DNA of 64,000 nucleotides. Source: Eledone cirrhosa (Eukaryota). The stretch covers positions 146,382,001 through 146,446,000 of the forward strand of contig OZ024743.1 in the NCBI GenBank assembly GCA_964016885.1, given 5' to 3'. Of this stretch, positions 11,243-47,102 are shown piece by piece; the first letter of the stretch is position 1; each line of letters opens with the position of its first letter. The notes beneath the pieces were generated by a model. That model was not told where the DNA came from, ran no database searches, and worked only from the letters and a program-made list of their open reading frames with translations. Made by a program: the position numbers and the translations under genes.

Positions 11243-11284
11243 ATCAAAGTTCTTTCGTCACACATCTGTGGCATCATCAGTGTT
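11243..11284 (-). ncRNA. Degenerate minimal hammerhead motif
   Basis: Minus strand AACA-CTGATGA-TGCCACA GATG TGTGAC-GAAA-GAAC-TT-TGAT. The core is intact; stems I-III each have one mismatch. Confidence 0.5.
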
Positions 11285-11866: not shown

Positions 11867-12544
11867 GTATATATATATATGTATGTATGCATATATGTAT
11901 GCATGTGTGTATGTATGCATGTACACATGCACCACACAGACATATATACATCATATTTAAGAGTATTAAATGTGAATTGTTTACAGCAAAATTGGTTTTA
12001 GCCAATAATTTTTAAATATTTTTTTTATTGTTAATGTTTATGTATGTATATTGCATGTATATGCAGTATGTACACAAACTTATGAATACATATATATCAT
12101 GATGTACATATACCTATATATCATGGTGTCTGGATATACATATGTATATCTATAAAGAGCAATTTCATTGACATCATGTAAATTTATGTATCTGTTTATC
12201 TGTATGTATATTTGTATGTGTATTTATATTCTTATGCTTATATATATGTGTATTTGTATGCACTTGTGCAAACAATGTATGTACGTATGTACGTATGTAC
12301 ATATGTACGTATGTATGTATGTATATATGTATATATATATGTATTGTATGTATGTATGTATGTATGTATGTATATATGTATATATATATGTATTGTATGT
12401 ATGTATGTATATATATGTATTGTATGTATGTACATATGAATGTATGTATGAATGTAGGAATGTATGCATGTATGTATGTATGAATGTATGTGTGTATGAA
12501 TGCATGTATATATGTTTGTACACATGTTTATATATATATATATA

Positions 12545-12893
12545 CAATGATATTAAAGAAATGGAAACTATATTTATAAAACCATATTTATTTTATTTTA
12601 TATATTTTAAGGGTACCAAAACTTTGGTACGCTCTCATCAGATAAAATACTAAGTTTGTTTTATAAATGTTGACATAACCAAGAAAAGATACCTCAACGG
12701 TTCAAGTTTTTCTTGGATAGCTGAAACTTGAACCGTTAAGGTATCTTTTCTTGGTTATGTCAACCAAACTTATGTAAAACAAATTTTGTATTTTATCTGA
12801 TGAGAGTGTACCAAAGTTTTGGTACCCTTGAAATATATATAATAGAAGAAATATGGTTTTATAAATATAGTTTCCATTTATTTAATATCATTG
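12545..12893. mobile_element. Fold-back element with hammerhead motif in both arms
   Basis: Arms ~12545-12709 and ~12724-12893 are reverse complements. The right arm continues as a unique tail to ~12990 before (TA)n. Confidence 0.85.
12791..12847 (+). ncRNA. Minimal type I hammerhead ribozyme motif
   Basis: TTTTAT-CTGATGA-GAGTGTACCAAAGTTTTGGTACCCTT-GAAA-TATATA-TA-ATAGAA. The mirror copy at ~12591-12647 (-) has GAAA>AAAA. Confidence 0.75.
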
Positions 12894-13365
12894 AATATTA
12901 TACTCCAGAAAATTCTGTTGAGTGCTCTGAATCAGTTATAAACATTTATATTTGTTGAATTACCAACAAATTGAATATCCCTTTTGCTCATATATATATA
13001 TATATAAGTATGTACATATATACATAAATATGTATATATAAACATGTGTATAAACATATATACATACATCATCATCATTTAACGTCTATCTTCCATGCTA
13101 GCATCGGTTTAGACGGAAATTGTCCCACTTGAGGCAAGATTGGTTGTCTTGCTCATACAGGACTGTCTGGCAGGTTTTTTACGGCTGGATGCCCTTCCTA
13201 ACACCAACCACAGTGTGGACTGAAAGGTTTTTACTGTGTTACCTACACAGCCACATTACAGCGTGGATTGTGTTTTTTTTTTGTTGTGACACCTACACGA
13301 CCTCATTTATTTAGGACTGGATATTGTGGTACCAACATAACTTTACAGCGAAAGGGGTGGTGTAG

Positions 13366-14130: not shown

Positions 14131-14392
14131 ACTGACTGGCACATAAGGACATCATAATGGGAACACTTTTGTTTACACATTAGTCTGTTGTGCAAATGAT
14201 GTACTGGTTAGCACCTCATGTTGTTATAATTAGACATTTGGGAAACAGTCCAGCTGCTGAGTTCATCTGATAAGGAACTTGTATTGAGACCTACAGGCAA
14301 GTTAGGAAATTATGGGATAGAATTAAAATGGAGAGGACAACTATACCTATACTATCAATACTTCAATACTATTGTACACTATATTTTTGTTA

Positions 14393-16078
14393 GTTGTGGT
14401 CGTTGTTGTGGTTGTTACTGTTGTTGTTGTGGTTGTTACTGTTGTTGTGGTTGTTACTGTTGTGGTTGTTGTTGCTGTTACTGCTGTTGTGGTTGTTGTT
14501 GTTGTTGTTACTGCTGTTTGGTTGTTACTATTGTGGTTGTTACTGTTGTTGTTGTTGTTGTTACTGCTGTTGTGGTTGTTACTGTTGTTGTGCTTGTTAC
14601 TGTTGTTGTGGTTGTTACTGTTGTGGTTGTTACTGTTGTGGTTGTTGCTGTTACTGCTGTTGTGGTTGTTGTTGTTGTTACTGCTGTTGTGGTTGTTACT
14701 ATTGTGGTTGTTACTGCTGTTGTGGTTCTTACTATTGTGGTTGTTACTGTTGTTGTGGTTGTTACTGTTGTGGTTGTTGTTACTGTTGTTGTTGTGGTTT
14801 TTACTATTGTTACTGTTGTTGTGGTTGTTACTGTTGTTGTTGTTGTTACTGTTGTTGTTGTTGTGGTTGTTACTGTTGTTACTATTGTTGTGGTTATTAC
14901 TGTTGTTGTGGTTGTTACTGTTGTTGTTGTTGTGGTTGTTACTGTTGTTACTATTGTTGTGGTTATTACTGTTGTTGTGGTTGTTACTGTTGTTGTTGTT
15001 GTGGTTGTTACTGTTGTTGTTGCTGTTGTTGTTGTTGTTGTGGTTGTTACTGTTGTGGTTGTTACTGTTGTTGTGGTTGTTACTGTTGTTGTTGTTGTGG
15101 TTGTTACTGTTGTTACTATTGTTGTGGTTATTACTGTTGTTGTGGTTGTTACTGTTGTTGTTGTTGTGGTTGTTACTGTTGTTACTATTGTTGTGGTTAT
15201 TACTGTTGTTGTGGTTGTTACTGTTGTTGTTGTTGTGGTTGTTACTGTTGTTACTATTGTTGTGGTTATTACTGTTGTTGTGGTTGTTACTGTTGTTGTT
15301 GTTGTGGTTGTTACTGTTGTTACTATTGTTGTGGTTATTACTGTTGTTGTGGTTGTTACTGTTGTTGTTGTTGTGGTTGTTACTGTTGTTGTTGCTGTTG
15401 TTGTTGTTGTTGTGGTTGTTACTGTTGTGGTTGTTACTGTTGTTGTGGTTGTTACTGTTGTTGTTGTTGTGGTTGTTACTGTTGTTACTGTTGTTGTGGT
15501 TGTTACTGTTGTTGTGGTTGTTACTGTTGTTGTTGTTGTGGTTGTTACTGTTGTTGTTGTTGTTGTTGTTGTTGTCGTTGTTACTGTTGTTGTGGTTGTT
15601 ATTGTTGTTGTGGTTGTTACTGTTGTTGTTGTTACTGTTGTTGTTGTTGTGGTTGTTACTGTTGTTGTTGTTACTGTTGTTGTTGTTGTTGTGGTTGTTA
15701 CTGTTGTGGTTGTTACTATTGTTGTGGTTGTTACTGTTGTTGTTGTTGTGGTTGTTACTGTTGTGGTTGTTACTATTGTTGTGGTTGTTACTGTTGTTGT
15801 GGTTGTTGTGGTTGTTACTGTTGTTGTTGTTGTTGTGGTTGTTACTGTTGTGGTTGTTACTGTTGTTGTTGTTGTCGTTGTTACTGTTGCTGTGGTTGTT
15901 ATAGTTGTTGTGGTTGTTACTGTTGTTGTTGTGGTTGTTACTGTTGTTGTGGTTGTTACTGTTGTTGTTGTGGTTGTTACTGTTGTTACTATTGTTGTGG
16001 TTGTTACTATTGTTGTGGTTGTTACTGTTGTTGTTGTTGTTGTTGTGGTTGTTACTGTTGTTGTTGTTACTGTTGTTG
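14393..16078. repeat. 1.7-kb compound trinucleotide repeat (GTT/GTG/ACT/ATT)
   Basis: Direct reading; produces poly-V/T/N/L/C pseudo-ORFs. Confidence 0.95.
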
Positions 16079-29304: not shown

Positions 29305-29377
<73 letters not shown>

Positions 29378-29644
29378 ACTAGAGATTGATTAACATATAA
29401 ACAAACATGAATAATTACAGGAGTTAATTTTTACAAGTGTGTAACCACGCATAGCTAGGTAGGTAACTAAATAAAGTTGACCAGAACTTCAAAAATAGAT
29501 ACCTTATAATATGATTAATCTTCCCTGTATATATCCATTAAAGAAATATATTTCACCAATTAATCAGATGGTAAACCACAGAAGTGGAGATTGGGATTTT
29601 CAACAAGGAAGAAATTTCCAGCAATCCGTGTTTACACTTCAAGT

Positions 29645-29800
29645 GAGGTGTTTAACTCCATCAATACTCCGATATGTCCAGCTCCTGGCTGGGTTGTTAT
29701 TTCTCTGAGGAACTGGAATCATATGATTCCAGTTTCTCAGAGAAATAACAACGCAACTAGGAGCTGGGCATATCGGAGTATTGATGGAGTTAAACACCTC
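29645..29800. repeat. 156-bp spacer-less palindrome at the 5' end of a hammerhead element
   Basis: Centre GAATCAT|ATGATTC at 29722/29723; arms pair with a few mismatches. Confidence 0.9.
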
Positions 29801-29837
29801 AACAACATGTGTACCCGTCTCTACCACACCAATTTGG

Positions 29838-29892
29838 ACTGCCTGAGGAGGTCACAGCCAAAGATGGCTGTCACCGAAATATATATAGCAGT
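29838..29892 (+). ncRNA. Minimal type I hammerhead ribozyme motif (most canonical in window)
   Basis: ACTGC-CTGAGGA-GGTCACAGCCA AAGA TGGCTGTCACC-GAAA-TATATA-TA-GCAGT. Perfect 5-bp stem I, G-C closing stem II, site AUA. Confidence 0.85.
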
Positions 29893-30030
29893 AATAAACG
29901 AAGCCAAATTTTAAATATTTGACTTATTTATTTTATTTTACATTACTCCAGAGTAACCAAACCAACCTGCGCACTTCGTCGAGTGCTCCAATCTGCATAC
30001 TGAGGTGTCGGTAAACAACCAACATATACT

Positions 30031-30063
<33 letters not shown>

Positions 30064-30067
<4 letters not shown>

Positions 30068-30482
30068 CTGGGTACTTTTTGTTGTGACACCTACACGATA
30101 CTATATATATACTATATATATATATATATATGTATATATATAGTATATATATAGTATCGTGTAGGTGTCACAACAAAAAGTACCCAGCACACATTGTAAA
30201 TGTGGTTGGCGTTAGGAAGGGCATCCAGCCATAGAAATCCAGCCTCCAAACACCTAGCCCACACTGTAAAGTGGACGTGTAAAAGACACGACAAAAAGCA
30301 CCCATCACCCACTGTCAATGTGGTTGGCGCTTGGAACGGCATCCAGCCGTATAAAACCAGCCAGAAACTCTCCTATATGAGCGAGACATGGTCATATGGC
30401 CCAACTTGCCTCTAATTGGGACAAACCCGTCTAACATATGCTAGCATGGAAGATAGACGTTAATCAACGATGACGATGATGG
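30064..30482 (+). mobile_element. Family C element with inverted 5' duplication around a TA tract
   Basis: 30064-~30115 is the reverse complement of ~30138-30189. The element ends GGAAGATAGACGTTAA..GATGACGATGATG. Confidence 0.7.
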
Positions 30483-33168: not shown

Positions 33169-33429
33169 GGAAAAAATGAAACGAAATTTCATTTCCCACT
33201 CTTAGTACGGCTGTTACTTAAATATAAGTATGTATACGTACATACATATATGTATACAGACGTACAGTAGTATGTATATATATATACATACATGCACACA
33301 TATATATATGTACGTATGGATTCACCGAACATTTATTATAATGCTCGGTGTGTTTGTAAACAAACATCCCGTATTAAGCCGTAGTGTCCAGCAACCATCG
33401 TTGCTCATTTGTTCAACACTGACAAAGGA

Positions 33430-33472
33430 ACGCTGTACTAGTTTCAAGCTTATTAGCTATCATCAGCAACGT
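33430..33472 (-). ncRNA. Minimal type I hammerhead ribozyme motif
   Basis: Minus strand ACGTTG-CTGATGA-TAGCT AATA AGCTT-GAAA-CTAG-TA-CAGCGT. Confidence 0.8.
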
Positions 33473-33779
33473 ATACCTTCCTGCCAGATTGTTGAACGTA
33501 TATACTTACCTTATGCATATTAACGGCTGAGTAGCCCAATTTGCATATCGAGTGGGTTAATCGGCCGGGTGCACCGAAAACGATAAACGGAAAAAATGAA
33601 ACGAAATTTCATTTCCCACTCTTAGTACGACTGTTACTTAAATATAAGTATGTACATTTTTTCGTTTATCGTTTTCGGTGCACCCGGCCGATTAACCCAC
33701 TCGATGTGCAAATTGGGCTACTCAGCCGTTAATATGCATAAGGTTAGTATATACGTTCAACAATCTGGCAGGAAGGTAT

Positions 33780-33822
33780 ACGTTGCTGACGATAGCTAAT
33801 AAGCTTGAAACTAGTACAGCGT
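33780..33822 (+). ncRNA. Minimal type I hammerhead ribozyme motif
   Basis: ACGTTG-CTGACGA-TAGCT AATA AGCTT-GAAA-CTAG-TA-CAGCGT, with palindromic stem III CTAG and site GUA. Confidence 0.8.
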
Positions 33823-34937
33823 TCCTTTGTCAGTGTTGAATAAATGAGCAACGATGGTTGCTGGACACTGTACGGCTTAATACGGGATGTTTGTTTACAA
33901 ACACACCGAGCATTATAATAAATGTTCGGTGAATCCATACGTACATATATATATGTGTGCATGTATGTATGTATATATACACTTGTGTGTACATATCTTT
34001 CACTTATGTATATTGGTAAAAGAAAACAAGCCGATGTTTTATGAACAAAGTGCTTTGCAATATTCCTTCTGCTCTGAGTTACAAATACTTCCTTGTCTAC
34101 ACCTACCATCAGAAATTAAAGGAACTGGTGATTAGCCCATTAGAAATCTGTAATCAATTGCAATAGGAAATGGCAAACATACATGGTTCCATAACTCTCG
34201 AGGGAGTCGTAGGGCTCTTATTAACACACACCATTTCTATGGCATTTAAACAATCTGGTGAAGCTCAATCCTCTCCAGGTCTGAATACAGCAGATTTCTT
34301 CTAGAGAAAGATAGAGAGAGTGAGAGAATGGGAGTGAGAAAGAGATACAGAGGAAGAATCAAACTCAGTACTAGACTGATACTTTTTTTTATCAACTTTG
34401 AATGAATGAAAGGTAATGTGGACCTTGCCAGGATTTGAACTAAGAGAGCAGAGAGCTGAAATAAATACTACAAAGCATTCTAGCTGACATTCTAATGACC
34501 CTGCCACTTTGCCGCCTATAATATGAAATAGATAAATTAATTAATAAATAGATAAATAATAACATAGATGGATGGAAGGCAAAGTAAGCCCTGGTGAAAT
34601 TTCAATTCAATCCAGAGGGACAAAACTAGATACAGGTGCAATTGATAAATCTACTTGGTTTCTCTTTGAACAGGTATCTTATTGCAATTAAATTGTAAGA
34701 AAAACTGCAACGGTCATCATCATTTTCACAGAGAATGTGATTGGGTAGCATCATACTACTGATCTTACATATAATTTATCTCTGAATGGCATTTCTGCAC
34801 ATGTATTCATAACATTTATCAGCATAGAATTTCATAATCACCCCTTGACATTTTTCAGGCAGTTTGTTTTTCTTTCCTTCTATGTAGATATATTTGTATG
34901 AGATTATGTGTTCATGAGCATATAAATATAAATATGA

Positions 34938-47066: not shown

Positions 47067-47102
47067 TCTTCTGATGAAGGACTAGCGTCCGAAACGTTAA
47101 GA
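47067..47102 (+). ncRNA. Ultra-minimal type I hammerhead motif
   Basis: TCTT-CTGATGA-AGGAC TAGC GTCC-GAAA-CG-TT-AAGA. Stem III reduces to the palindrome ACGT. Confidence 0.75.

Follow-up and report, generated by a model that had tools for sequence, protein, structure and literature searches.

The 64,000 nucleotides of Eledone cirrhosa DNA analysed here (the window) contain a long palindrome directly upstream of a hammerhead ribozyme motif, which raises the question of how such a structure was formed and from which element it derives. The sequence-only reading of this DNA had described a palindrome of 156 bp; its spacer-less centre at 29722/29723 is as described, and its length is 158 bp, with one more pair at each end. 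The two arms (29644-29722 and 29723-29801; 79 bp each, 0-nt spacer) are 94% complementary, with mismatches in five of 79 pairs, three of them of the G-T type, and folding of the central 86 nt gives -37.3 kcal/mol (z = -15.8), a value equalled by none of 200 shuffled sequences. We confirmed that the left arm ends short of the ribozyme and that the right arm continues through the hammerhead and a tail (29723-30033). The insert contains pieces of two repeat families, designated A and B, and both of its flanks, examined for a target-site duplication, consist of (TA)n (Table 1).

Table 1. Features of the locus in window coordinates; position +1 of family A is window 29723, and family B positions are those of its repeat unit.
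Feature	Position	Strand
(TA)35 microsatellite, left target tract	29305..29374	.
Family B piece, 270 bp, unit positions 154-427, up to the tail-less terminus of B	29375..29644	-
Family A inverted left arm, pLTR +79 to +1, cut at the B junction	29644..29722	-
Natural micro-palindrome TCAT/ATGA centred on the axis, a hot spot for junctions across the family; putative 5' end of the RNA	29719..29726	.
Direct arm of a predicted Hydra-clade Penelope-like element, +1 to +311 at its pLTR end	29723..30033	+
Type I hammerhead motif; stem III short and palindromic; cleavage predicted after A29887	29838..29892	+
Tail of about 93 nt on one arm only, about +219 to +311	29941..30033	+
(TA)16 microsatellite, right target tract	30033..30064	.

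The hammerhead motif starts 36 nt beyond the right end of the palindrome and, in agreement with its first description, its conserved core, stems and TATATA-type stem III can be read directly from the sequence. Stem I comprises 5 bp (ACTGC at 29838-29842 with GCAGT at 29888-29892), the core is CTGAGGA...GAAA, stem II has about 10 bp with one C-C mismatch, and stem III is short; folding recovers stems I and II (z = -2.09; 5 of 200 shuffles equal). The Rfam hammerhead models did not match the motif in 29780-30030, with one irrelevant match at E = 8.5, and no hammerhead appeared among the 150 matches listed, of 250, in an Rfam search of the whole window, nearly all of which were microsatellite-driven miRNA models under the gathering score. 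Published hammerheads derived from Penelope-like elements (PLEs) share with this motif the 5-bp stem I, long stem II and short palindromic stem III, and they also form opposite-strand pairs originating from truncated PLEs, with no notable difference from the arrangement seen here; monomers of this type are reported as inactive or weak.

A resemblance of the tail and stem III to those of an element at 12545 had also been proposed. The likeness is above chance, though weak (local score of 115, against a mean of 76.8 and a maximum of 103 in 300 shuffles), but the 12545 element belongs to a separate family and has an inverted repeat that is not shared with ours (12535-12902, 88%). This other family is present as a head-to-head stub at 12535-12990, whose arms are 88% identical and which also has a tail and, at 12797, a hammerhead motif; it has relatives in loci L033, L063 and L151. 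The window also contains an inverted-repeat element at 33400-33850, with hammerhead-like CTGAYGA...GAAAC cores on both strands (33466, minus, and 33786, plus), and further hammerhead-like motifs at 47071, 11280 (minus), 2035 and 9457; that at 11280 resembles a partner family found in L065, L004 and L005.

A genome search with the right arm, the ribozyme and the tail retrieved 2150 candidates for family A, of which, as in all our DNA searches, only the best 40 were scored, showing 92-97% identity. The full-length copy L134 is organized as inverted pLTR, pLTR, ORF and pLTR. In full-length copies the ATG of the ORF is at +369 and the tail region is non-coding 5' UTR, and upstream of the axis the parent copies contain the end of an ORF. 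Pfam retrieved nothing meaningful with three ORF pieces from L047 or with an 894-aa ORF, including no GIY-YIG match, nor did a PDB sequence search with the parent protein; because these databases recognise nothing in it, the assignment of the family rests on motifs and Atlas neighbours. As predicted from these, the family A parent is a PLE of the Hydra clade, a group of C-terminal EN+ PLEs that, in the accessible text of PMC8557442, includes the cephalopod Hydra-1_Obim. An AlphaFold single-sequence model of residues 1-480 was set aside (pLDDT 34.7).

In common with the Hydra clade, as characterized in the accessible text of PMC8557442, family A shows the RWK motif (RRMRWKAF, in the N-terminal region of the natural 894-aa ORF of L099/L136), the change from DKG to DKT (HADKTNN in L099 and L093), the CxCX5C linker before the endonuclease (CNCRNPESC in L099 and CNCRNPELC in L085) and, at the C terminus, a GIY-YIG-like region without CCHH and with CxxC and CxH around E/N (IVYGCRV...LYIG, CKLCLNE and TCRH, as read by eye from the ORF). 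Likewise, it contains a hammerhead within the pLTR, recognised by motif and fold, is inserted into (TA)n, with TA tracts adjoining the arm ends, and carries a 5'-truncated pLTR in inverted orientation that faces the direct one head-to-head, together with a one-sided tail. The Atlas neighbours of the parent protein are RVT_1/HTH_animal clusters (0.93-0.97). Family A is longer, with its 894-aa ORF and a 3' region of approximately 1.7 kb, than the Hydra elements in the same text, which are below 3 kb; Hydra-1_Obim, compared by metadata and not by sequence, has 2507 bp. The tail of family A, in turn, has about 93 nt, versus the 30-40 bp stated for PLEs in the text available. A search with the parent RT gave 38240 first-look candidates, and the 144 that were scored included several in open frames of 800-896 aa; this clade is therefore abundant and partly intact. 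In L016, a 100-bp tandem repeat of about three copies (reference -1392 to -1090) overlaps both the end of the family A ORF and the first part of the 3' region.

Does the palindrome belong to the family, or only to this copy? Across the axis, 863 exact matches read through without a palindrome, and because of this it is not a fixed internal feature of every copy. The parent sequence has a natural TCATATGA micro-palindrome at this very point, a coincidence that the sequence-only reading had proposed to look for. The samples taken from the family A search and with a 26-nt centre pattern (177 forward and 179 reverse matches) were chosen for an intact centre; 14 of 30 loci read GAATTCAT, followed after the axis by ATGATTCC, as parent copies, and the other 16, including the studied one, have a junction at -3 to +2. 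A 14-bp perfect centre is found in 326 genome loci, versus four for a reversed control. Additionally, of 29 copies selected only by their tail, 10 begin at -3 to +1, within 5 nt of the axis (P of about 3e-12 under uniform truncation over 600 nt). The axis is thus a recurrent, family-wide hot spot, neither unique to this locus nor a chance truncation. We did not retain further apparent hot spots, seen near -199 and -180; the copies at -199 have a rearranged upstream structure in common and probably constitute one subfamily.

The outer ends of the arms are also constant. Among the exact-centre loci in the first 16 places on contig C1, one arm extends to +310/311 in 15 and the other to +214-224, adjoining TA, in 13; six of them are complete, nine have an arm interrupted at most 45 nt from the axis and one contains a duplication. 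In 12 near-complete palindromes, the two arms differ by 1.3% within a copy, compared with 6.6-7.2% between copies, and for 22 of 24 arms their own partner is the nearest or tied-nearest sequence, with no fixed arm-specific column. We therefore rejected the amplification, as a unit, of a single palindromic master; since arms match within a copy and differ between copies, the palindromes were formed many times or homogenised in place. Gene conversion could also be a source of this within-copy identity, which does not discriminate between twin priming and fold-back.

Either arm can stop at the axis independently of the other: the tail arm alone does so in L009, L011, L029 and others, and in L057, L063, L067 and L089 it is the inverted arm that reaches the axis and the tail arm that stops elsewhere, with the inverted arm of L089 being joined to a copy truncated inside the ORF. 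Judging from the sequences compared, these independent stops best fit cDNAs that would run off a fixed RNA 5' end. We consider it probable that a Hydra-clade PLE left this head-to-head stump during integration, made of two cDNAs joined at a fixed point and with a left arm that was later shortened by deletion. The endonuclease would cut (TA)n, and the two target ends would prime reverse transcription inside the pLTR RNA, at about +311 for the tail arm and about +218 for the tail-less arm. Both cDNAs would then run off the RNA 5' end, around -3 to +1, a putative transcription start with CCAAT at -54 (present in the eight parent copies checked), and their self-complementary TCATATGA ends could either pair with one another or fold back, and then be extended. 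Finally, the loss of +80 to +218, of a TA tract and of the rest of an adjacent family B insertion would leave the 79-bp arm.

Several of these steps have parallels in other elements. The start site lies inside the pLTR in other PLEs, and, in the accessible text of PMC11167929, the tail of an Anolis PLE is delimited in vitro by two internal sites at which RT starts, and both target strands are extended. Family A resembles this Anolis element, PAc, in the AT-rich targets, in the two internal RT starts proposed to bracket the tail and in the proposed cleavage and extension of both strands; PAc differs, in that text, in belonging to the Poseidon clade and in starting inside the ORF, whereas both ends in family A fall within the 5' UTR, upstream of its ATG (+369). 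Twin-hairpin folding at the fixed ends of family A was weakly supported (z from -0.7 to -2.1). The sequence after each of these ends (+221 and +311) contains a CTCC...YYGAGYGCT motif, at 29945-29990 of the window and at about 2535-2560 of L134.

The structure had originally been attributed to hairpin self-priming at a truncated 5' end during integration. Its origin at integration, and at a natural micro-palindrome, agrees with our data; the axis, in turn, does not correspond to a chance truncation, and a simple hairpin accounts less well than two independently primed cDNAs for L057, L063, L067 and L089. As a general explanation, a single cDNA that terminates at the micro-palindrome and, once folded back, serves as its own template, with the left target end capturing the new strand, is possible but less favoured, and it is equally tentative that capture would usually occur at an AT-rich stretch near +218. 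Self-priming, which was already proposed in the accessible text of PMC3846280, is consistent with the palindromic nature of the TCATATGA axis, with the match of the arms within copies and with the multi-turn junctions of L058 and L127, and it explains as well or better the very short inverted arms of L108 (17 nt) and L118 (12 nt). Because these last run straight into TA, as a simple fold-back predicts, hairpin priming probably contributes. However, the inverted arms of L057, L063, L067 and L089 contain sequence near the junction that is missing from the tail arm, which would demand further deletions or a long loop; the hairpin at the parent cDNA end is not unusually stable (z = +0.9), and the end of the tail-less arm is fixed in 13 of 16 loci.

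The shortness of the left arm requires a separate explanation. As had been pointed out, this arm stops before the ribozyme; this is most likely the result of a later deletion, the simplest reading, and not a primary feature. Tail-less arms usually extend to +214 to +224, and the studied one ends at +79 because it adjoins the second repeat family, which the sequence-only reading had not recognised, at a junction that is unique in the genome (one match, allowing up to one mismatch). Microhomology at this junction is clear for only 1 nt; GTT is common to both parents, and the locus is one T short of a GTT join. A search for family B gave 2167 candidates, with 95-97% identity for the best 40 scored. 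It is made of a tandem unit of about 565 bp, with a PLE-like layout, TA targets, inverted pairs of its own and fixed 3' ends at unit positions 427 and 570-580; the unit is also present in L081 (3387-3951). We compared family B with non-LTR retrozymes, which have a tandem unit carrying a type I hammerhead: the tandem unit is present, and no canonical hammerhead was found by a relaxed motif scan or folding. No linked ORF was found, the ORF matches in 6 of 44 B loci not being traced to B; neither could we detect any sequence shared between families A and B. In L106 and L065, the loss of a TA tract has left a family A arm fused to the interior of a different hammerhead family, and the partner element in L106 keeps both of its own arms, which indicates that deletions across TA tracts do occur. 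The family fused to the A arm in L106 has a very long stem I, of about 40 bp (L106 1547-1710; L069 1620-1920).

Alternatively, the fusion of B and A could be primary, the product of one integration that used a family B RNA for priming at the left target end and a family A RNA at the right one; we regard this as unlikely, and the same applies to the accompanying proposal that a 79-nt fold-back from the A cDNA bridges both pieces. Two TA tracts flank the insert as a whole, which contains no other and has canonical polarity, with the tail-less end of B (427) at the left and the tail end of A (+311) at the right; because of this arrangement, a primary two-RNA chimera stays as a reading, to which the similar age of both pieces, about 97% identical to their nearest copies, also conforms. 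Nevertheless, around half of the deletions between neighbouring stumps would give that polarity by chance, deletions across TA occur next to a complete partner element, as in L106, a single template gave rise to both arms in complete copies, and A and B have no detectable sequence in common. Likewise doubtful, in our opinion, is a combined reading in which the axis is the transcription start of the Hydra pLTR RNA, two cDNAs primed at opposite target ends zip up by their TCATATGA ends, and the locus may record such an event on two RNAs, with B at the left and A at the right; if true, this would constitute genomic evidence for two-ended priming in the integration of PLEs.

It is very improbable that the palindrome is a fold-back artefact of assembly or sequencing. 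At four of the five mismatch sites, one of the arms has the allele of the other 29 of 29 copies, and the fifth site is polymorphic in the family; because one arm keeps the family allele at those four sites, the mismatches correspond to neutral decay and not to a copying artefact. Also, 31-36-mers across the palindrome centre were found in Logan contigs from three runs of one sample, a 61-nt Logan contig in run X1 matches the right arm exactly, including private alleles, and junction variants are not the same from locus to locus. Among Logan contigs and RAD-seq reads, none spans the whole locus or the B-A junction, which proves neither presence nor absence; this leaves the artefact the argument that no long read or contig found covers the locus, nor the runs compared the junction. 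It is just as improbable that selection maintains a cruciform or RNA hairpin for regulation beside the ribozyme: the fold is very stable and the centre is spacer-less and AT-rich, but the arm mismatches are private decay without compensation, and by-product copies exist in hundreds, often with broken arms (9 of 16). Extrusion as a cruciform, which had been suggested, is physically possible, with no indication of a function.

The studied locus is, then, ordinary transposon debris with an already described layout, and implies no host function. Inverted pLTRs, junction palindromes and one-sided tails are known features of PLEs, with self-priming proposed in 2013 (accessible texts of PMC3846280 and PMC8557442), and the junctions of EN+ PLEs in PMC3846280, as far as its available text goes, combine a head-to-head inverted pLTR, a palindrome and a tail on a single arm, as here. 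Unlike in the description given in that portion of PMC3846280, one axis recurs in hundreds of copies of family A, with either arm stopping independently, and the inverted arm of the studied copy is fused to another family. In our literature search, in which subscription papers were mostly uncovered, we found no paper on a twin-priming mechanism with inverted arms in PLEs, and the idea may be published; with the same coverage, PMC3846280 was the sole match for Penelope self-priming. The present analysis adds a count of the junctions at this hot spot, which coincides with a natural micro-palindrome, and an account of the short left arm. How PLEs make inverted pLTRs and tails is a question flagged in the accessible parts of PMC3846280 and PMC8557442, and family A provides a usable natural dataset for it, in which a single axis and two fixed outer ends are combined with a copy number in the hundreds, as well as exact coordinates for RNA 5'-end mapping and an in vitro test.

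Directly after the TA tract of the element, the window contains a second spacer-less palindrome (30061-30194; 67-nt arms, 97%), centred on TA. It is an inverted copy of the first 67 bp, approximately, of the right host flank, the start of a SINE-like repeat, and possibly arose by fold-back repair at a nicked TA tract. Farther upstream, positions 14387-16078 are occupied by a (GTT)-rich tandem array of 1.7 kb with a strong strand skew.
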